From IMG/VR virus record IMGVR_UViG_2657245112_000033: 7,153 nucleotides of DNA; one strand, written 5' to 3'. Each line of letters begins with the position of its first letter. Positions within the stretch are counted from its first letter, which is position 1. This document shows, one piece after another, positions 1 through 7,153 of this stretch. Made by a program: the position numbers and the translations under genes. The notes under the pieces are model-generated. The model did not search any database. It was not told the DNA's origin and saw only the letters and a list, made by a program, of their open reading frames with translations. This stretch comes from a virus. Lineage: Duplodnaviria; Heunggongvirae; Uroviricota; Caudoviricetes.

Positions 1-162
1 TAGCTATAAATACATCTAAATACCTATATCCCTTCCCTTATGGCTAGATTGCGAGAAGTGCTTAACGCGATTTTCAGCGCCCCCCGATCTGGAAAATCCA
101 GAATCCCCAAATATCAGCAAGGAATTTTCTTGCGTAATCAACATCGTTTTTACCTATTAAAT

Positions 163-189
163 CATTACACAGAAAGCCTTTCTGTAATG
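163..189. repeat. Near-palindromic site carrying the ATTACACAG motif (ATTACACAGAAAG-c-CTTTCTGTAAT)
   Basis: 12-bp arms are reverse complements apart from one bulged base. The left arm contains the same ATTACACAG motif that recurs through 505-1900. Confidence 0.6.
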
Positions 190-442
190 TCTCTCACTAA
201 ACTTTCACTAAACACGAGAATGATCGGTTTTATGTCGGATCAGATGCTAGAAACAGCACCACGTCTCACAAGGGCTGTAAGCGATGAAACCAGTGTTTAT
301 GCGGGTGCAGGTCAAAATATAGGCCAAAATCCATTTAACATAATAATCGTAATATGCACTAAGGAACACATAGAACGCCTTGAGTTGATGTATCAGGGGA
401 AAAGTGATGGATTTTTTACGTAGGAGCACGAGAGGGCTTCTG

Positions 443-470
443 TTGACTTTTGTGTGCTATGAAATATAAT
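443..470 (+). promoter_or_regulatory. Sigma70-like promoter, TTGACT-16 bp-TATAAT
   Basis: TTGACT at 443-448 and a perfect TATAAT at 465-470 with a 16-bp spacer. It points rightward into the repeat region, where no ORF of 60 aa or more follows. Confidence 0.5.
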
Positions 471-504
471 TAAAAGTTTTTTGTTTTTATCGTGTGATGT
501 AGTG

Positions 505-951
505 GATTACACAGGGGAATAGATTAAATGGTGTTCTGTTTATACAGGTTTATTTGTTAGATCAACAATTTGGCATTTCTAAACAGATGTTTGAACGTTG
601 CCAAATGTCTTGACAACACAAGAAAAGGGCTTGCTATGCCACGCATTACACGAAATAAGGCTGTAAAAACAAAATAAATTTTAAAATTTGCACAAACAAG
701 AAAACTCATTAAGAAACAAGCAGAACAATTTTTAGCCAACAATTTCTGATGGTGCTCTGTAAGCCGCATTACACAAGGATTTGCGAAAGTGATGTAAAAG
801 TGAAGAAAGTAAGAATTGAACTTTTAAGCTACTTTTTTCATTGAATTTTTAGTATGGAATTACACAGGAATAAGTTAGGGATATTCTATGATTTACACAG
901 GGAATATAGGGGGGATTATGGCACACACATAGAAAGGCATTACACAGAGTG
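505..951 (+). repeat. Dispersed direct copies of the ATTACACAG(G)RAATA motif (6 copies)
   Basis: Copies at 505-522 (gattacacaggggaatag), 644-660, 767-780, 858-874 (aattacacaggaataag), 891-910 (atttacacagggaatatagg) and 938-951. All share the TTACAC core in the same orientation. Confidence 0.75.
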
Positions 952-966
952 CTATGTGACAAATGG

Positions 967-1072
967 ATGTAACGAGAGGTTACATTCAGCTATCTGAAAT
1001 GCTCTTTGTAAGAAAGTTGGTAGTAACGATATGTTACATAGACTAATTATTGAATGTAACGATATTACACAT
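967..1072. promoter_or_regulatory. Three tandem inverted-repeat operator-like sites (ATGTAAC-N5-GTTACAT)
   Basis: 967-985 atgtaac-gagag-gttacat (perfect 7-bp arms); 1021-1040 tagtaac-gatat-gttacat; 1054-1072 atgtaac-gatat-tacacat; plus a half-site at 1086-1095. The arm sequence GTTACAY is the TTACAC-family core. Confidence 0.55.
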
Positions 1073-1097
1073 CGGAAGATGATTGAATGTAACGGTA

Positions 1098-1138
1098 GCT
1101 CACAGTGAGCTAGGGGTAGGTCATAGTGAACTACCCCC
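1098..1138. repeat. 13-bp perfect palindrome GCTCACAGTGAGC plus about 1.5 units of the 22-bp iteron family
   Basis: gctcacagtgagc at 1098-1110 is its own reverse complement. It is followed by taggggta-ggtcatagtgaactac-ccccc, which matches the unit repeated at 1355-1436; ggggtag and ctacccc form a 7-bp inverted repeat. Confidence 0.7.
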
Positions 1139-1146
1139 ACAGAATT

Positions 1147-1198
1147 CTGTTACCCCTATCAAGTCTGATACCCCTATCAAAACTGATACCCGATAAGA
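1147..1198 (+). repeat. Three tandem 18-bp repeats (CTGWTACCCCTATCAA)
   Basis: ctgttacccctatcaag (1147-1163), ctgatacccctatcaa (1165-1180), ctgatacccgataag (1183-1197, degenerate); period 18 bp. Confidence 0.7.
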
Positions 1199-1208
1199 AT
1201 AAATAACA

Positions 1209-1309
1209 CCTAGGAAATGATTTCCGATCTATTTAGGAAGTAACCTAGGAAGTGGTTTCCTACCTACTTAGGAAATGAGTTCCTACCTACCTAGGAAATG
1301 AGTTCCACC
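1209..1309 (+). repeat. Four to five direct copies of a 15-bp motif TAGGAARTGRKTTCC, each with an internal GGAA-N5-TTCC inverted repeat
   Basis: Copies at 1211-1225, 1246-1260, 1269-1283 and 1292-1306 (the last two identical), plus a degenerate copy at 1234-1245; spacing mostly 23 bp. The architecture resembles plasmid centromere or iteron arrays. Confidence 0.7.
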
Positions 1310-1331
1310 AATACTATAATTAAATAATATA

Positions 1332-1354
1332 AATAATATTCTTTATACTATATA
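1332..1354 (+). repeat. 23-bp perfect direct repeat, copy 1 (aataatattctttatactatata), left of the iteron array
   Basis: Identical to 1482-1504. AT-rich and contains a TATACT -10-like hexamer. Confidence 0.85.
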
Positions 1355-1436
1355 GGTCACTGTGACCTAGGGGGTAGGTCATAGTGAGCTAGGGGGTAGG
1401 TCATAGTGAGCTAGGGGGTAGGTCACTGTGAACTAC
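1355..1436 (+). repeat. 22-bp tandem iterons, about 3.7 copies (GGTCAYWGTGASCTAGGGGGTA)
   Basis: Units at 1355-1376, 1377-1398 and 1399-1420 (the last two identical), plus a truncated unit at 1421-1436. The first unit contains the perfect 13-bp palindrome ggtcactgtgacc. AT-rich tracts lie on both sides. Confidence 0.85.
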
Positions 1437-1481
1437 AATAAGACTATTAATAAAACTATATTAGATTATTAATTAGATCAT

Positions 1482-1504
1482 AATAATATTCTTTATACTA
1501 TATA
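1482..1504 (+). repeat. 23-bp perfect direct repeat, copy 2, right of the iteron array and its AT-rich tract
   Basis: Exact match to 1332-1354; the flanking bases differ on both sides, so the repeat is exactly 23 bp. Confidence 0.85.
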
Positions 1505-1509
1505 TATAT

Positions 1510-1930
1510 GATCTTTTGCCTTCCGGCGTTAGCTTCACTCTCTGGCAAGCAGCCTTACTCCGCTACCTTTCGGGCTTCGTGGCTGGCCCGTTCCGCTCAC
1601 ACCGAAAGCAAAGCGTTACTTTCTTCGTGTAACTATCGTGGCGGTAACGCCCACGAAGAAATACTATTGCGCTGTGCGCAGAAGAGTAATCACCTAACCA
1701 ATCATACTGATTGCTTATGTGTAACTCTCTACCTCTTAATTCCACTTCCTACATTTAATAACTCTCGTTATTCTCTGTAGTTGTGTAATTACTCGAAGAG
1801 AGCGGCTAAAGCTCAATTACACTCTGCTTTCCTCGTGTAATTTCACTAAGCCTCAATACAATTTCACTTCCTACATTCTGTAGTCGTGTAATTGTTTTCG
1901 GTGGAAAAGCCAGAGGCGACACCGAAAGAG
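1510..1930. other. GC-rich island with dense hairpin potential; candidate structured RNA or single-strand DNA initiation element
   Basis: Visibly more GC-rich than its AT-rich flanks. Predicted stem-loops: 1621-1660 (outer ttcttcg/cgaagaa around a GC stem capped by a GUAA tetraloop), 1668-1680 (tgcgc-tgt-gcgca), 1749-1780 (ctaca...tgtag enclosing aataac-tctc-gttatt) and a shorter paralogous module at 1862-1893. The 7-mer ctctggc (1540-1546) is complementary to gccagag (1909-1915), and caccgaaag occurs at both ends (1600-1608, 1920-1928). Inverted TTACAC copies lie at 1626-1633, 1717-1725, 1782-1790, 1834-1843 and 1885-1893. Confidence 0.35.
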
Positions 1931-1962
1931 AATTCTGATCTTATTAATCTTATCTATCTTAG

Positions 1963-2001
1963 TTATCTTACTTACTTATCTTACTTACTTTATCTACTTT
2001 A
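1963..2001 (+). repeat. 13-bp tandem repeat (TTATCTTACTTAC, about 3 copies) inside a G-depleted AT-rich tract
   Basis: ttatcttacttac at 1963-1975 and 1976-1988, with a degenerate third copy at 1989-2001. The plus strand from about 1939 to 2020 contains almost no G. This could be a DNA unwinding element. Confidence 0.65.
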
Positions 2002-2515
2002 TTATTAATAATATCTTTATAAGCTCTGTGTAGCTCTCTGACGCAAGAAACAGCATTCAGGAAGGGAATCACCTTAGAAAAGTGTTCTTTGCGTCATAAT
2101 GTGTTTTATGAAGGATTCAGAGGTGTTTCATAACAGAGATGTATAGAGGATACTTTAGGTAATTAAAAATAAGGGGTCTAAATGCTTCTCTAACAACATT
2201 AAGCAGGGTAGGGAATGGAAACGCATTGCCTACATATAATAAACTCACTACAGGGCTTTACAGAGCGTTTTATAAAGTGACTCTCTGTTTTATATCTATC
2301 ATCATCTAACAAATACAAAATAAGCCACTTAAATAAGCCTCTGGCGAGCTAAACAGCCATTAGATAAGGGAATGTATTGCTTTTATCAAAATCTCGTTAG
2401 AACGCGTTTTAGAGCGTTTTAGACAATAAGGAAGAATAGCACTACATAGGAGAGCACGAATTGCTAAGAAAAAATGTAAGTGCATGAAAAAGATCAGATT
2501 TTTTATGAAAAGGTA

Positions 2516-2544
2516 TTGACAAATGTTTCTTTATATGTAATAAT
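2516..2544 (+). promoter_or_regulatory. Sigma70-like promoter with extended -10 (TTGACA-17 bp-TGt-AATAAT), probable promoter of the 2656-4950 operon
   Basis: TTGACA at 2516-2521, TG at 2536-2537, AATAAT at 2539-2544. The leader downstream contains a short hairpin (aagcc-gtca-ggctt, 2603-2616) and a T-run at 2625-2635 before the first ribosome-binding site. Confidence 0.55.
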
Positions 2545-2655
2545 AGGTATTAGAGGGACAGAAAAACATTCTTCTCTAAATAATCAAAATCAATGCACTT
2601 TGAAGCCGTCAGGCTTGCAAGGTGTTTTTTCTTTTAACTGAATAAGGAGTTTTTT

Positions 2656-2844
2656 ATGAAATGGTTTACACCTGAGCACGTCGTCCAGGCATTTAAAAAA
2701 GGTGAGCTTACACGCCACCAAGTAGTAATGAATCGTAATATGGCAAGGAGTCGAGGTTATCCAGAGCGAGCAGCTTGCTTCAATGAAGCACTCAAGATTA
2801 TTGATGAACTAAGAAAAAATGAAAAAGAATCTGAAACAGAGTAA
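2656..2844 (+). CDS. Hypothetical small protein (62 aa)
   Basis: ATG at 2656 preceded by AAGGAG (2644-2649); first gene after the predicted promoter; no family recognised. Confidence 0.6.
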   Translation: MKWFTPEHVVQAFKKGELTRHQVVMNRNMARSRGYPERAACFNEALKIIDELRKNEKESETE

Positions 2845-2863
2845 AGAAGAGAAGGAGAAAACT

Positions 2864-3034
2864 ATGAGCGAAACTACAGAAAAGAAAAGACAACCACGCA
2901 CTTGCTTTCATATTCCTGATGAAGTATTTCAGGTGTTATTTAAAGAAGCCAGAAGTAGACGGATCACTGTCACAGATTACATTCTTGATATGTTGAAAAG
3001 AGAGGCTGAAACACTCTCAAATAAAAGCAAGTGA
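2864..3034 (+). CDS. Ribbon-helix-helix-like (CopG/Arc-type) small DNA-binding protein, about 56 aa
   Basis: The track ORF is 2819-3034, but the ATG at 2864 has an AAGGAG site (2852-2857) and lies after the upstream stop (2842-2844), while 2819 has none. The segment RTCFHIPDEVFQVLFKEARSRRITVTDYILDMLKRE fits a strand-helix-helix pattern. Confidence 0.5.
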   Translation: MSETTEKKRQPRTCFHIPDEVFQVLFKEARSRRITVTDYILDMLKREAETLSNKSK

Positions 3035-3087
3035 TTTTTATCACCATAGTAGCGCCATAGAGCGTGATTACATCAAGGAGATTTTTA

Positions 3088-3780
3088 ATGATTAACCAAC
3101 TAACTTTTACAAAACACTATGACACGTTTGATAATGTATCAAAGATTTATTCTGATAAATTCCCTCAAGGAAAAGATTTAGATCTATTACATATTGTGCT
3201 TTATTTTCGATTCCTTAGTTATCAGGAAAACAACCTTAATTGTTATGAAAGTCACGAAACATTAGCTAAGATTTTTAAGTCTTCAGCGTCAACAATTAAA
3301 CGTAAGATAAACGATCTTAAAGAGATGGGATTATTAGAAACATCCCCACATCCTGATCCGTATATTTCATCTTTGATTTACAATGCTCTCCCTCTCACAG
3401 ATGCACATATTACTCCCCCAGGAGAATCATCACTCTCTGATCTTTCTGAGGCAGAAGAAGCACAGGAACAACCTAAAGGCCATAAACAGCCTTCTTTTGA
3501 TGTTCTTGATGATGATTGGGATACGCCTTTACCGTGGGAGACGGAAGAAACACCTGTTTCATCAAGTGAAAAGGTAGCTAATGATAATGAGGAGGATGTG
3601 TTAAAGAATTTTGCCTCTCTTATTATCAAGCAGAAGAATACTAGAACAGGAGGAGCATCATTTATAGAATTTGCAACATCGTTAGCCTATAAGCACAGGT
3701 TAAAGCTACCAAATGGTATTGAGGCATATTTTGCTAAGAAACATCCCAAAGTATACGAAGACTTTGATATTCCATTTTAA
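3088..3780 (+). CDS. Winged-HTH-like DNA-binding protein with acidic C-terminal region ending in an SSB-tail-like DFDIPF; possible replication initiator or organiser
   Basis: The track ORF starts at GTG 3064; the in-frame ATG at 3088 has AAGGAG at 3075-3080 with a 7-nt spacer. The N-terminal part (LHIVLYFRFLSYQENNLNCYESHETLAKIFKSSASTIKRKINDLKEMGLLE) fits a winged-HTH pattern. The C-terminal half is acidic (DDDWDTPLPWETEE) and the last residues are EDFDIPF. Confidence 0.7.
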   Translation: MINQLTFTKHYDTFDNVSKIYSDKFPQGKDLDLLHIVLYFRFLSYQENNLNCYESHETLAKIFKSSASTIKRKINDLKEMGLLETSPHPDPYISSLIYNALPLTDAHITPPGESSLSDLSEAEEAQEQPKGHKQPSFDVLDDDWDTPLPWETEETPVSSSEKVANDNEEDVLKNFASLIIKQKNTRTGGASFIEFATSLAYKHRLKLPNGIEAYFAKKHPKVYEDFDIPF

Positions 3781-3791
3781 TAAGGAGGGTT

Positions 3792-4070
3792 ATGATTCAA
3801 TATTTAGTAAAAAATCAAGTAGACAGAATTCAGTGTAACGACACAGGAAAACGCATCTACGAAACACTTGCTTACCTCTATAAAGGAAAGCCAACACCGC
3901 TAAAATATAGCGATGTGTTACATCGAGCAGGGTGCTCTGAAGATGGTTTAAAATTCTGGCTGAAACAGCTATCAAACTTCGGTGTTATAGAAATTAAAGA
4001 ATTATCTTTCTCTACATTCAATCTCAAAAGACTAGATAAAGAAATAGAATTCATCTATTCCACTCTCTAA
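3792..4070 (+). CDS. Small winged-HTH-like protein (92 aa)
   Basis: ATG at 3792 preceded by AAGGAGGG (3782-3789), 11 nt after the upstream stop. The segment IYETLAYLY...KYSDVLHRAGCSEDGLKFWLKQLSNFGVIEI follows the same helix-turn-wing pattern as the upstream protein. Confidence 0.65.
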   Translation: MIQYLVKNQVDRIQCNDTGKRIYETLAYLYKGKPTPLKYSDVLHRAGCSEDGLKFWLKQLSNFGVIEIKELSFSTFNLKRLDKEIEFIYSTL

Positions 4071-4111
4071 AATCTCTCTATGTAATTAAAATATAAAAGG
4101 AAAACATTATT

Positions 4112-4231
4112 ATGATAGTAGCTATGTATTGGTTATTGTTCTTTCTCACGTTAGAAACATACTTCGGGGTGTTTTCCTTTAAAAGAAAAGGAAAAGTAAA
4201 TAATGGCAAAAAGAAAAAACAACGTTGTTAA
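4112..4231 (+). CDS. Candidate small hydrophobic peptide (39 aa, MIVAMYWLLFFLTLETYFGVFSFKRKGKVNNGKKKKQRC)
   Basis: Not in the ORF track because it is under 60 aa. ATG at 4112 with AAAAGGA (4096-4102) upstream. One hydrophobic segment followed by a lysine/arginine-rich tail. Its 3' end overlaps the start of the next gene out of frame. Confidence 0.25.
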   Translation: MIVAMYWLLFFLTLETYFGVFSFKRKGKVNNGKKKKQRC

Positions 4232-4613
4232 GAAAATCGGGGATTCAGCTTCTCTTCTAAGTAAACCTAAATCTATTCTAAGACGCAAAGACTTTAAAGA
4301 GCTAGTTACGCTCACCAAGCAAAATAGCGCCCCTGGCGAATGGAAAACAGAGATCATAGAACATTCTCCCTCTGTGCCTTGCGGAGATGAATTTAACGCC
4401 TTACAAGAAATCTTATCTTCAACACCTGGCGTATTCTGGAAACCTAGAAAAAGAAAAGAGTATATCGTTGATAGCTCTGATTTACGCAAATACCAGATTT
4501 TAGGATTTGAAGACTATAACCACTACGTTGGTTATCTCGCCACAAATGGCCTAAATAACTTAGTTCCAGACTTCCAGATTCTAGATAATGCTGATCACTA
4601 TGGAGACTTTTAA
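4203..4613 (+). CDS. Hypothetical protein (136 aa) with basic N-terminus
   Basis: ATG at 4203 with AAGGA (4188-4192) upstream; the N-terminus MAKRKNNVVKK is basic; no family recognised. Confidence 0.6.
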   Translation: MAKRKNNVVKKIGDSASLLSKPKSILRRKDFKELVTLTKQNSAPGEWKTEIIEHSPSVPCGDEFNALQEILSSTPGVFWKPRKRKEYIVDSSDLRKYQILGFEDYNHYVGYLATNGLNNLVPDFQILDNADHYGDF

Positions 4614-4614
4614 T

Positions 4615-4950
4615 ATGAACAAAAACACGTATGACACAATTTACTCACTAATTAATTATTATGAGGATGATTACCTTCTGCCTTTAAACCGCGCTGAACT
4701 TGAAGCATACAAAGAAAACACACCAGCGTCACTAAATGAGGCGTTTAAACACTGGGATTTAGCTGTGAATGCCTTTGAGCACCTCTCTAAGCGTGTAGAG
4801 ATGCTCTGTAAGCGCGAAAACGCATACCTGACAGCCGATCAGATATGGGAGCTATCAAACTGGATAGAAGATATCGAATCTGATGTTCGCTATGTGGGAG
4901 ATGGACTTGTCGAACTCGCTCAACGCTTAGGCACTATCACAGAAGAATAA
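4615..4950 (+). CDS. Hypothetical protein (about 111 aa)
   Basis: The track ORF starts at 4588. In-frame ATGs at 4600 and 4615; the one at 4615 follows GGAG (4602-4605) and the upstream stop (4611-4613), so 4615 is preferred but uncertain. Confidence 0.55.
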   Translation: MNKNTYDTIYSLINYYEDDYLLPLNRAELEAYKENTPASLNEAFKHWDLAVNAFEHLSKRVEMLCKRENAYLTADQIWELSNWIEDIESDVRYVGDGLVELAQRLGTITEE

Positions 4951-4979
4951 AAAAAGCAACAAAAAAGTTGTAAAATATC

Positions 4980-5008
4980 TTGACATTCCATCTATTATAT
5001 GTTAATAT
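4980..5008 (+). promoter_or_regulatory. Sigma70-like promoter with extended -10 (TTGACA-17 bp-TGt-TAATAT)
   Basis: TTGACA at 4980-4985, TG at 5000-5001, TAATAT at 5003-5008. Same architecture as the promoter at 2516-2544. Confidence 0.5.
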
Positions 5009-5146
5009 AATTATATGGGGTGATTATTTTTCCTTTATTGGTTCGATATTAAAAATTCTTCTTGTCGTTAAAGGGGAGTAAAATCTCCGCTCCCCGCTTC
5101 TCCTCCTTAAGTAAATACTGTGTCATTATTACCTCTTTTTTCCTTT

Positions 5147-5176
5147 GTTATGCATACATCTTGGAGTATGCATAAC
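5147..5176. promoter_or_regulatory. Perfect 11-bp inverted repeat GTTATGCATAC-N8-GTATGCATAAC (operator-like)
   Basis: Arms at 5147-5157 and 5166-5176 are exact reverse complements. The half-site GTTATGCA recurs at 5242-5249 next to a second small inverted repeat (caactt-aa-aagttg, 5248-5261). Confidence 0.6.
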
Positions 5177-5205
5177 ATAGGGTAATTACATAGGTACAAG
5201 TTAAT

Positions 5206-5238
5206 AAAAGGCGGCTCTAAATGCTGCCTTTTATTTTG
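5206..5238. terminator. Rho-independent terminator hairpin, possibly bidirectional
   Basis: aaaaggcggc (5206-5215), loop tctaaat, gctgcctttt (5223-5232): about a 10-bp stem with one G-U pair, followed by ttttatttt. The A-run upstream gives a matching U-run on the opposite strand. Confidence 0.6.
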
Positions 5239-5299
5239 CCCGTTATGCAACTTAAAAGTTGTATTTCTTACTTTAAACAAGGTAACAAGGTTTATATAA

Positions 5300-5512
5300 A
5301 TGTTGTTCTTAAATGATAAAGAGCAAATCATCAAGTATAAAGATGAAATGCTGAAAATAAATCCACAAATTACCGAAATGGTAGCTAAATACGCTGGGTG
5401 TTCTGTAGAAGAAGTAGAAAGATGTGTTGAAAAATATTTTTCTCCTTCTTCTCCGTCTACACCTTCCCTTAATGAATTAATCAAATTAAAAGCTAAGGAG
5501 ATTACTAAATGA
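5300..5512 (+). CDS. Hypothetical small protein (70 aa)
   Basis: Its stop overlaps the next start (ATGA at 5509-5512), suggesting translational coupling. Weak ribosome-binding site (aagg near 5288). Contains a Ser/Pro-rich segment SPSSPSTPS. Confidence 0.5.
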   Translation: MLFLNDKEQIIKYKDEMLKINPQITEMVAKYAGCSVEEVERCVEKYFSPSSPSTPSLNELIKLKAKEITK

Positions 5513-5871
5513 TTATTGATTTAGACACTCTGTTTCCAGTTCGAAAGACTTTCACAGATATTGTAAGTTATTGTACTGATCCGTTTGCCTCTGTAGAAAG
5601 CAAGGTTTTTGCTTCTCTTCCTGCTGATGTTGAATGCGGCGACTTGATCACCAGCACTGGCGCTAAATATGTATCAGGAGATGATATCTATGTTGTTATG
5701 AGTGAATTTGTAACGGCTGGAGAAAACAAACCTGTAGATGTTTTACGTAGCAATGCTGGGCTTGTATGCATCAAAGCTGATGCGCTGAATGCTGTAAGTG
5801 AAGCAGCAAAAACAGCATTAATTAAAAAAGGCTTCCAGCTTGAAGGGTTCCATTCTGTTTTCACTTCTTAA
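5509..5871 (+). CDS. Putative head decoration or accessory head protein (120 aa), assigned by position only
   Basis: AAGGAG at 5495-5500, ATG at 5509. It sits immediately upstream of the major capsid gene, where lambda has gpD, but I see no clear sequence similarity to gpD. Confidence 0.55.
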   Translation: MIIDLDTLFPVRKTFTDIVSYCTDPFASVESKVFASLPADVECGDLITSTGAKYVSGDDIYVVMSEFVTAGENKPVDVLRSNAGLVCIKADALNAVSEAAKTALIKKGFQLEGFHSVFTS

Positions 5872-5889
5872 TAAAAGGAATAATAATAA

Positions 5890-6918
5890 ATGATTCTAGG
5901 CAATGATTACGTTGATTTGATCCCTCTGTTCCAGACACACAGCACGCGTAACTTCCTGCTCTCTACTCTTGATTTTACGGATTCTGTAGGGGTTACATCT
6001 CATAAAGTAGCTGTTTCCCAGCTTGTCGAAAGCAACGAATCTCTCTTTAACAAAGAGACAAGCCGTTTTAGTTCTGAACACAATGTTACTAAGCGAGAAC
6101 AAGGTAAAGAATGGCTGATCGAGATCCCTTACTTCCTGCGTGAAGATGTGATCCGTCCTTCTGATGTTCAAGGCAAACGTAAACCTGGCACTGATTTCCA
6201 GGAAACACTCACTGATATTTATGCGGAATATATCGCTAAACACCACGTAGCGTATCAGCGTACAAAAGAGAGCGTATTGGCTGCTTCTTTGTTCTCGGGC
6301 AAAACTTATACACCGAAAACTGATGATGTTCTTATCGAATGGGGCAAGCTGTTTAACGTATCAGCTATGAAAGCCACTGTGAACGCTTCCAGCACTGACA
6401 CCACGAAGATTTTTAAAGAATTTGATCAGATTGCTACTGACATTATCGAGAAAGCACAAAGCCAGGCGTCTGCTGTAGAGCGTATTGTTGTTTTCTGTAA
6501 ACCTGAAGCCTTCTCCGCAATTCGATTCTCTGCTGGTATGGCAAACGCATTCCAGTATGTAAGCCCACTGGAAGAGGGGAACGTTGTGTATCAGCGTCGT
6601 GACCTGCTGCCAGGGGTGACAGCGTTCACTATCCCAGGAACTAACATTGATGTTGTTAAACTGGTAGATCCGCTACACCTTGCACATATGACTTCTGATG
6701 CGGTTGCGATTCCGAAGTTTGCTAAAGGCTCTAATGTATATCAGAACATCTACGGGGCTGCTTCCAGCACTTTTGAACTGATCAATGCCGCTCCTGCTGA
6801 GGTGTATAGCTATAGCTATGAATCTTCTCGTGGTGATGCTGTTAACGTTGTTACAGAGAATAGCCAGATGGTTGTAAACCACGGTGTAGGCTTCTCCGTT
6901 CAAATCACTGTTAAATAA
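5890..6918 (+). CDS. Major capsid protein, lambda gpE family (342 aa)
   Basis: AAGGAA ribosome-binding site before ATG 5890. Length matches gpE (341 aa). Several segments resemble my recollection of lambda gpE: SVLAASLFSGKTYTPKTD vs AVSAVLKGKYTMTGE, ASAVERIVVFCKPEAFSAIRFS vs ASGVVNIIVFDPKGWALFRSF, DLLPGVTAFTIPG vs NFLPDNTMVLG, and C-terminal GFSVQITVK vs EFVSVQLA. Recalled, not aligned. Confidence 0.85.
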   Translation: MILGNDYVDLIPLFQTHSTRNFLLSTLDFTDSVGVTSHKVAVSQLVESNESLFNKETSRFSSEHNVTKREQGKEWLIEIPYFLREDVIRPSDVQGKRKPGTDFQETLTDIYAEYIAKHHVAYQRTKESVLAASLFSGKTYTPKTDDVLIEWGKLFNVSAMKATVNASSTDTTKIFKEFDQIATDIIEKAQSQASAVERIVVFCKPEAFSAIRFSAGMANAFQYVSPLEEGNVVYQRRDLLPGVTAFTIPGTNIDVVKLVDPLHLAHMTSDAVAIPKFAKGSNVYQNIYGAASSTFELINAAPAEVYSYSYESSRGDAVNVVTENSQMVVNHGVGFSVQITVK

Positions 6919-6958
6919 TATTTAACGTGTAATAGAGGCGTGGCGCTGAGAGATCCCC

Positions 6959-7153
6959 TCATAATTTCCCCAAAGCGTAACCATGTGTGAATAAATTTTG
7001 AGCTAGTAGGGTTGCAGCCACGAGTAAGTCTTCCCTTGTTATTGTGTAGCCAGAATGCCGCAAAACTTCCATGCCTAAGCGAACTGTTGAGAGTACGTTT
7101 CGATTTCTGACTGTGTTAGCCTGGAAGTGCTTGTCCCAACCTTGTTTCTGAGC
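6959..7153 (-). CDS. Possible 3' end of a convergent gene running off the window (C-terminal 64 codons, unknown function)
   Basis: The minus-strand frame entering at 7153 is open for 64 codons (...GMEVLRHSGYTITREDLLVAATLLAQNLFTHGYALGKL) and stops at 6959-6961. It is absent from the track because no Met start lies in the window. The composition is protein-like, but a chance open frame is not excluded. Confidence 0.3.
   Translation of the reverse strand, partial: AQKQGWDKHFQANTVRNRNVLSTVRLGMEVLRHSGYTITREDLLVAATLLAQNLFTHGYALGKL

Follow-up and report, generated by a model that had tools for sequence, protein, structure and literature searches.

Known satellite systems and the locus under study

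The phage satellites described so far either resize the coat of their helper, as do P4, the Staphylococcus aureus pathogenicity islands (SaPIs) and PLE (an element that resembles phage-inducible chromosomal islands), or bring a complete head of their own, as do the capsid-forming phage-inducible chromosomal islands (cfPICIs). The present analysis concerns a stretch of 7,153 nucleotides (IMG/VR record IMGVR_UViG_2657245112_000033; hereafter the window), which covers the left and middle part of a chromosomal island of Enterobacterales. This integrative element of 12.4 kb is probably a satellite that parasitises virulent myophages of the phi92/phAPEC8 type (Stephanstirmvirinae, genomes of about 150 kb, taken here as the helper group) and builds chimeric particles.

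Among the known systems, the element works most like a cfPICI, yet it lacks the module by which cfPICIs are defined. The cfPICIs were reportedly described by Alqurainy et al. in 2023, with detection markers from de Sousa et al. in 2023, and are said to occur in Proteobacteria and Firmicutes. In both cases a chromosomal island of about 10-15 kb bears an integrase gene and encodes an own capsid protein with the HK97 fold, the helper capsid not being remodelled, and a helper supplies the rest. In cfPICIs the head and packaging module is complete, with portal, protease or scaffold, head-tail connectors and small terminase, and only the tails are taken, from temperate phages. The island, in contrast, has no portal, connector or terminase genes and hence no complete head and packaging module; it possesses instead the tape measure and tube initiator genes, which serve the tail interior, and the sequence similarities lead to virulent 150-kb myophages.

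In the case of P4, the terminase of the helper P2 packages the satellite into a small capsid; P4 encodes the external scaffold Sid and the alpha primase-helicase, and is devoid of a capsid protein and of tail genes. P2 itself is a temperate phage with cos ends. The island resembles P4 in its own decoration protein (Psu in P4), in size (11.6 kb for P4, 12.4 kb for the island) and possibly in carrying a copy of the helper packaging site, as P4 does, whereas its presumed helpers are virulent and have direct terminal repeats. None of the island proteins gave a family match to the P4 markers (alpha primase-helicase, Sid, Psu, Delta/Epsilon). The island has an integrase and a winged-helix protein that resembles initiators; primase, AlpA, TerS and Rpp, which are among the markers of classical phage-inducible chromosomal islands, were not detected by family scans.

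The PLE of Vibrio cholerae is a chromosomal satellite of the large virulent myophage ICP1; the satellite reportedly ends up in small capsids and restricts its helper, and it takes the ICP1 coat protein, which is resized via TcaP (PMC10945586). A large virulent myophage as the presumed helper is common to PLE and the island. The differences relate to the coat and cement, both of which the island encodes itself, and to the integrase, which is a tyrosine recombinase in the island and a large serine recombinase in PLE. General Pfam and PHROG scans revealed no homology to PLE proteins, no direct comparison to the PLE core genes, such as those of RepA and TcaP, having been made.

No description of such an island, including any satellite connected with phi92 or the Stephanstirmvirinae, was found in the searchable literature, the coverage of which was incomplete, so that a prior description is possible. 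To our knowledge, neither a tape measure gene in a satellite nor a satellite capsid gene without a portal gene has been reported. If the proposed reading is true, no earlier satellite would be known to encode a tape measure, to have a capsid protein without a portal or, in E. coli or Klebsiella, to exploit an obligately lytic phage. If confirmed, it would represent a new satellite strategy, in which an own shell is set on a foreign portal and the tail ruler is replaced.

Gene content, boundaries and conservation of the island

Positions 1-6945 of the window are E. coli chromosome, with 100% identity to many complete genomes of the O26, O103 and O111 types. At least 80% of the window is present in 266 of 5,426 complete E. 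coli genomes and a part of it in 739, the prevalence of the island in such genomes being about 5-14%. The intact copy of strain E2865 (L001) served as the reference for the whole island. Each edge of the island is a 28-bp copy of the 3' end of the tRNA-Thr gene thrW, beside proA; the two copies form a direct repeat, lie 12,386 bp apart and have host genes beyond them. The first part of the island consists of about 3.7 kb nearly free of open reading frames (ORFs), after which come two small genes (62 and 71 aa), the gene of the initiator-like protein (238 aa), three further genes (92, 136 and 120 aa) and a leader. The second part comprises, successively, the genes of a 70-aa protein, the decoration protein and the capsid protein, a terminator, the genes of a 67-aa protein, the tape measure (609 aa; PHROG 16051, E 1.4e-54) and a Dit_like protein or tail-tube initiator (237 aa; PF21821, E 3.4e-29), and the integrase gene on the opposite strand. 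Two structural modules are thereby present: (i) a head module of the 70-aa protein, a decoration protein with the gpD fold and a capsid protein of the E family; (ii) a tail module of the 67-aa protein, the tape measure and, in this E. coli type, the tail-tube initiator.

Genes for a portal, terminase, protease, neck, sheath, tube, baseplate or fibre were not found in the 12.4 kb bounded by the attachment (att) sites. Searches of Pfam, PHROGs and NCBIfam gave no match to a portal, connector or small terminase, and only the tape measure ORF would be long enough for a portal. The initial annotation, made on the window alone, had pointed to a capsid gene preceded only by small genes and without terminase, portal or protease genes in the vicinity. 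The first statement is correct, the winged-helix initiator-like protein being added to the small genes, and the second extends to the whole island as far as the flanking host genes. A head cluster just outside the window, named there as the finding that would speak against an isolated capsid module, was looked for in the whole island and its flanks and was not found. Beyond the window, terminase, portal and protease genes are likewise absent, and of the gene types sought only tail genes, the tape measure and tube initiator, occur in the same island. Among the origins considered in the initial annotation, a phage-plasmid finds no support in a chromosomal element whose integrase lies at a tRNA gene, and a rearranged phage genome finds none in a compact island of 12.4 kb flanked by att sites, the gene order of which is the same in several genera under purifying selection. 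A capsid-like shell outside the virion context is unlikely, given that tape measure and tail-tube initiator genes accompany the capsid gene. The remaining option, a satellite with its own capsid and borrowed functions, is favoured by the evidence.

The core set of the family (the 136-aa and 70-aa proteins, decoration, capsid, 67-aa protein, tape measure and integrase) has been identified in E. coli variants and in Citrobacter, Kluyvera, Buttiauxella, Scandinavium and Enterobacter, in islands that occupy differing integration sites. Homologues of core proteins also exist in Klebsiella, Cronobacter, Leclercia and Serratia, and the tube initiator is found in some island lineages only. Gene set and order recur across genera at 55-65% protein identity. 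The ratio of non-synonymous to synonymous substitution rates (dN/dS), taken from pairs unsaturated at synonymous sites, is 0.07-0.16 for the capsid, 0.12-0.26 for the decoration protein and 0.15-0.26 for the tape measure, and by this measure the core genes are under purifying selection.

These data bear on the possibility of a degraded prophage remnant, phi92-like or other, in which a few structural genes have survived by chance beside an integrase. The phage derivation of the genes, the nearly ORF-free 3.7 kb and the insertion sequence (IS) elements found in some copies would all suit such a remnant; phi92-type phages, however, are virulent and possess no integrase, one small set of genes is found in the same order in several genera, with dN/dS of 0.07-0.26, the non-coding arm is made of conserved blocks and iterons and not of pseudogene debris, and the capsid is far from that of any sequenced phage (identity of 26% at most). 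A remnant is for these reasons regarded as very improbable.

A metagenome contig (L012), labelled as a metagenome-assembled genome of a Bacillota bacterium, probably through a binning error, has a left arm 97-100% identical to the island, and its regulatory genes and capsid match an E. coli variant of 72% identity (L007). The mosaic structure of this contig indicates that island lineages recombine.

Head module

The major capsid protein (342 aa; window 5890-6918, + strand) belongs to the Phage_cap_E family with the HK97 fold. The assignment to this family in the initial annotation is borne out over the full length, with residues 22-341 aligned to positions 17-329 of the 329 of the Pfam profile (PF03864; E 1.1e-14; 54.7 bits at a cut-off of 22.9), and the protein also matches PHROG 29, major head protein. 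Compared to phi92 gp124, the identity is 22% end to end (E 1e-9), and gp124 is the top match when the profile of the capsid family is compared with all solved structures (E 4.7e-18). The identity to sequenced phages is at most 26%. All homologues of the capsid and decoration proteins lie in Enterobacterales chromosomes; both proteins are without a close phage relative and form a separate clade known from chromosomes only. The lambda framework in which the locus had been placed is only loosely right, and the relevant relatives are the phi92-type myophages, with their scaffold-decoration-capsid order.

Directly before the capsid gene lies the gene of a 120-aa protein (window 5509-5871, + strand), which by its gpD-type fold is assigned as a capsid decoration (cement) protein, in accordance with the role first suggested by its position. 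The fold is small and beta-rich, as in lambda gpD and its relatives, and phi92 gp123 has it too. Its C-terminus, ...VFTS, is common to phi92 gp123, and a 17-nt exact DNA match is located there. BLASTP gave no match between this protein and gp123, and hhalign aligned the last 30 residues only (E 0.034).

The third gene of the module encodes a helical protein of 70 aa (window 5300-5512, + strand), conserved in all related islands, and overlaps the start of the decoration gene. It takes the position of the scaffold gene in phi92, and the protein is possibly, on weak sequence grounds, a small scaffold or size factor. As a mini-scaffold it was examined through its C-terminal S..ELI..KA, which resembles the C-terminal end of phi92 gp122; the similarity is non-significant (BLASTP E 0.37, hhalign E 0.11).

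Similarity to proteins of phi92-type phages

Stretches of 40-50 bp with near identity to the DNA of E. coli myophages (genomes of about 146-151 kb) were the first matches to emerge. In phi92, the genes concerned are arranged locally as scaffold gp122, decoration gp123 and capsid gp124, and as gp133, tape measure gp134 and gp135. The head and tail modules of the island follow the same local orders, at identities of 61% for the tube initiator, 28-55% by region for the tape measure and 22% for the capsid. The island differs from phi92 in having only these head and tail pieces together with an integrase and its own putative origin.

The island Dit_like protein is 61% identical to phi92 gp135, named tail tube initiator in some records, and matches 55 phage records at 60-80% identity. 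Homologues of the tape measure occur in 134 phage records; among the matches listed, all are phages of 130-152 kb, nearly all of E. coli or Klebsiella, and those with taxonomy examined are phi92/phAPEC8 relatives. Compared to gp134, the first 66 residues are 55% identical, the C-terminal end is conserved and the middle is 28% identical. Between islands, the identity of the tape measure is 27-34%, versus 63% for the capsid, and the tape measure of a Citrobacter island is closer to that of the phi92/phAPEC8-type phages (32-39%, and 36-39% for those of the phAPEC8 type) than to that of the E. coli island (27%). This fast divergence and the closeness to phage copies fit a part that is kept compatible with the local helper. 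Altogether, five separate features tie the island to the phi92/phAPEC8-type phages: the tube initiator, the tape measure, the capsid, the C-terminal end of the decoration protein and the DNA element described below (block A).

The first 87 nt of the tape measure gene (L001 22222-22308, compared with phi92 68605-68691) show 86% DNA identity, far above the rest of the gene, which suggests a recent exchange with the helper or a very strong constraint on the N-terminus.

A candidate packaging site shared with the presumed helper

Block A is an element of 75 bp (window 41-115, + strand). Phi92 has a direct terminal repeat of 343 bp, and block A matches the inner (right) boundary of this repeat in reverse orientation. 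Positions 43-88 of the window correspond to the reverse complement of phi92 318-363 (46 bp, 93.5% identity, E 9e-9 with 2.3 Gb searched), and the same match is found in dozens of phi92/phAPEC8-type phages. It spans the annotated repeat end (phi92 position 343), with the terminus at GTGCT^TAACGCG (window 58-69), and phage records that begin at the physical terminus all carry the match at 318-363. Within phi92, of which 114 kb were compared, the sequence is confined to the two terminal repeat copies. An nhmmer profile of block A detected the element in 34 related islands, each time on the same strand and upstream of the capsid gene by about 5.4-6 kb. The terminus lies in a core of 26-27 nt, TTGCGAGAGGTGCT^TAACGCGATTTT, which the phages of E. 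coli, Klebsiella and Citrobacter carry unchanged between diverged flanks. Block A is therefore put forward as a candidate terminase recognition or cleavage site, and the sequence pattern favours a DNA site over a peptide or a regulatory role.

A second conserved non-coding element, block B (window 561-606, + strand), has 84-85% identity in Buttiauxella and Citrobacter islands. Its similarity to the interior of the phi92 repeat (135-184; 70% over 50 nt, E 0.001 in a small search) is weak, and the two blocks are collinear with the repeat.

The motif CCCCT(C)AAATATC forms an inverted pair in phi92, with one copy at 148248-148259, just outside the outer boundary of the repeat, and the other at 291-302, inside the repeat near the inner boundary. 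The islands hold only the inner copy, within block A.

Proposed particles and competing explanations

According to the proposed mechanism, infection by the helper would lead to excision of the island and to its replication from its own iteron origin. The island capsid and cement proteins would form a small shell around the helper portal, sized for about 12.4 kb and, by analogy with P4 (11.6 kb) and PLE, of T=4 and about 45 nm. The helper terminase would recognise the copy in block A and package island DNA of unit length, and tails would be made of helper subunits (baseplate, tube and sheath) placed around the island's own tape measure and tube initiator. With an own shell and tail ruler combined with helper parts, the particles would be chimeric, and the yield of the helper would probably be reduced. 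Whether the related islands as a whole constitute a widespread family of this kind, replacing selected virion parts (shell, cement and tape measure, with or without the tube initiator) on a helper portal, neck, baseplate, tube and sheath, and packaged via a mimic of the repeat boundary, is in our judgement an evenly balanced question.

A number of observations weigh against this mechanism, the first group of which concerns block A. The outer repeat boundary of phi92 is without a counterpart in the islands, local alignments being no better than those of shuffles, and the counterparts of the helper repeat are limited to the inner boundary and the weak interior block. Block A variants from other genera matched none of the phage records, all of which were searched. 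Moreover, block A doubles as the start of an ORF (MARLREVLNAIF..., MARLREVLNAIFSAPR...; window 40-423, 127 aa), for which most islands, as well as Klebsiella phage phi1_175008, have an ATG, and the three differences from phi92 within the 46-bp match are all synonymous in its frame. Because of this ORF start and the synonymous differences, block A could have a coding or regulatory role. These features, the missing outer boundary and the existence of a 136-aa core protein without a family match would also agree with a satellite in which block A is a small conserved gene start or a regulatory site shared with the helper, and in which packaging specificity resides elsewhere, for example in a small protein redirecting the helper terminase. 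The ORF, however, varies in length between 9 and 143 aa among relatives and is interrupted in E. coli copies that are nearly identical; it has an in-frame stop in one island and lacks the ATG in phi92 and in Citrobacter phage Tr1. The 26-27-nt core, in turn, is free of synonymous variation in phages from three host genera. An invariant core between diverged flanks is a pattern that fits a DNA site, and packaging specificity outside block A is held to be quite unlikely.

For the related phage BME3, a terminal repeat of 342 bp was determined from reads with PhageTerm (PMC12210895). In the record of this phage (PP239276, L100), the left direct terminal repeat (DTR-L, 1558-1899) lies 73 nt from the phi92-equivalent position, which casts some doubt on the exact terminus. 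The record ends exactly at the genome start of phi92 and the repeat lengths are 342 and 343 bp, respectively; the discrepancy of 73 nt is probably an annotation offset.

The second group of observations relates to the particle itself. The capsid protein is only 22% identical to that of the helper, and its assembly around a foreign portal is an assumption. The tape measure of the island is about 7% shorter than that of phi92 (609 versus 659 aa), and the need for an own copy is unexplained. Excised, circular or virion-derived copies were not found in isolate and metagenome data of Logan, ENA, IMG/VR and JGI, in which contigs of 11-14 kb were all integrated copies, either flanked by host DNA or broken off in assembly at the tRNA. 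The lack of any encapsidated or excised form would also be compatible with an anti-phage island that is never packaged, the diverged capsid, tape measure and tube initiator of which act as poison subunits, co-assembling with and aborting phi92-type morphogenesis and so protecting the population. Such an island could explain why the structural proteins are homologous to parts of one phage group and why the tape measure has helper-like ends and a diverged middle, as a competitive inhibitor might have; satellites and islands are, moreover, said to interfere with tail assembly. Poisoning, nevertheless, requires neither a full-length capsid and an own cement under strong purifying selection, nor a copy of the helper repeat boundary in fixed orientation, nor an origin with an initiator, and the PADLOC defence models gave only generic helix-turn-helix (HTH) matches among the island proteins. 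An unpackaged anti-phage island is accordingly judged unlikely, although interference and transfer are compatible with each other.

The proposed satellite is directly testable, as strains of Shiga toxin-producing E. coli (STEC) of serogroups O26, O103 and O111 carry the island and phi92, phAPEC8 and BASEL-type phages are candidate helpers. The presumed helpers are lytic phages of broad host range that have been considered for therapy, and the Stephanstirmvirinae, to which they belong, are used in phage-therapy collections. A resident satellite could lower the yield of therapy phages or spread chromosomal DNA between pathogens.

Non-coding arm, replication and regulatory genes

The non-coding arm contains an AT-rich, iteron-rich region (window 1019-1440, no strand assigned) with six copies of the 22-23-nt repeat GGTAGGTCATAGTGAGCTAGGG and three or four other repeat families. 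The latter include three copies of ACCCCTATCAA..CTGAT, three or four of ACCTAGGAAATGA.TTCCTACCT and two 33-mers. All families are tandem, with units of 22-33 nt and AT-rich DNA between them, and the region is likely, as far as its sequence can tell, the iteron replication origin of the island. Adjoining the iterons, a conserved GC-rich non-coding element (window 1535-1598, no strand assigned) corresponds to a 66-nt block with 92% identity to a Citrobacter island, the proteins of which are only about 63% identical. As single-stranded DNA, the 146 nt of positions 1520-1665 give, for either strand, a better fold than shuffled sequences do (z -2.7 and -3.0), and the GC-rich element is possibly part of the origin. 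With its iterons and with several blocks conserved across genera, the arm is organised rather than debris. A scan of the window and the whole island against Rfam gave the tRNA as its sole match.

To the left of the window, beside attL, about 350 bp (L001 13985-14334) are conserved at 70-96% in islands of Buttiauxella, Kluyvera and Citrobacter. This segment revealed no convincing ORF, Rfam match or RNA folding signal (z -0.78).

Two small genes of 62 and 71 aa (window 2656-3034, + strand), conserved in related islands, follow a sigma-70-like promoter at 2516-2544. The 71-aa protein is weakly similar to Arc/ribbon-helix-helix proteins, and both products are presumed to be regulators. The next gene (window 3064-3780, + strand) encodes the 238-aa winged-helix protein, which resembles phage replication initiators (Pfam HTH_36, E 3e-5; PHROG 270, replication initiation protein, E 2.9e-9) and presumably binds the iterons. 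Homologues of its N-terminal part are encoded by the Stephanstirmvirinae phages muut and Mt1B1_P17. When the remaining small island proteins were compared with all phages, the only matches were to muut, for the 71-aa protein and the initiator region. In one island lineage (L020 6118-7575 and L021 1778-3235), a 485-aa protein with a faint DEAD-helicase match stands in place of the winged-helix initiator, and by this replacement the replication module is seen to be exchangeable.

Three further genes of 92, 136 and 120 aa (window 3792-4950, + strand) encode proteins without family matches. The 136-aa protein, a core gene product of the family, has 387 homologue clusters and is very common in Klebsiella; its structure model was too poor for searching (mean pLDDT 54.5, pTM 0.20).

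In the leader of the capsid operon (window 4980-5237, + strand), a sigma-70 promoter close to the consensus (4980-5008) is followed by a perfect inverted repeat of 16 bp (5142-5181) and then by a hairpin that resembles a terminator (5206-5237). The islands of other genera (L005, L008, L010 and L013) have a hairpin with another sequence at the equivalent place, about 70-90 nt upstream of the 70-aa genes. This arrangement suggests that the capsid operon is under repression or under termination/anti-termination control. Helper-specific late promoters were also looked for; the promoters of both island and helper are TTGACA sigma-70-like, with nothing diagnostic.

Insertion of IS10 in the window

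The last part of the window (6946-7153, - strand) is the inner end of an IS10/ISVsa5 element, of which the window holds the terminus (CTGAGAGATCCCC...) together with the transposase gene's 3' part, the junction being read directly. The convergent ORF noted earlier downstream of the capsid gene is accordingly the transposase gene of an IS10 and does not belong to the island; the junction is present in 2 of the 5,426 complete E. coli genomes, both O111:H11. The IS10 is thus a strain-specific insertion foreign to the island. In L016 (coordinates 9297-10630), its site is inside the terminator hairpin located 3' of the capsid gene, of which the window retains the left half (6935-6945, + strand). 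The intact intrinsic terminator, GAGGCGTGGCGTGTATTCACGCTTCGCC followed by a T-run, is found in the reference island (L001 21935-21959). Since IS10 separates the head module from the genes of the 67-aa protein, tape measure, tube initiator and integrase, and enlarges the element by 1.3 kb, the island copy in the genome of the window may be impaired. An IS600 insertion inside the same island in NZ_CP074826.1 demonstrates that IS elements have struck the island more than once.

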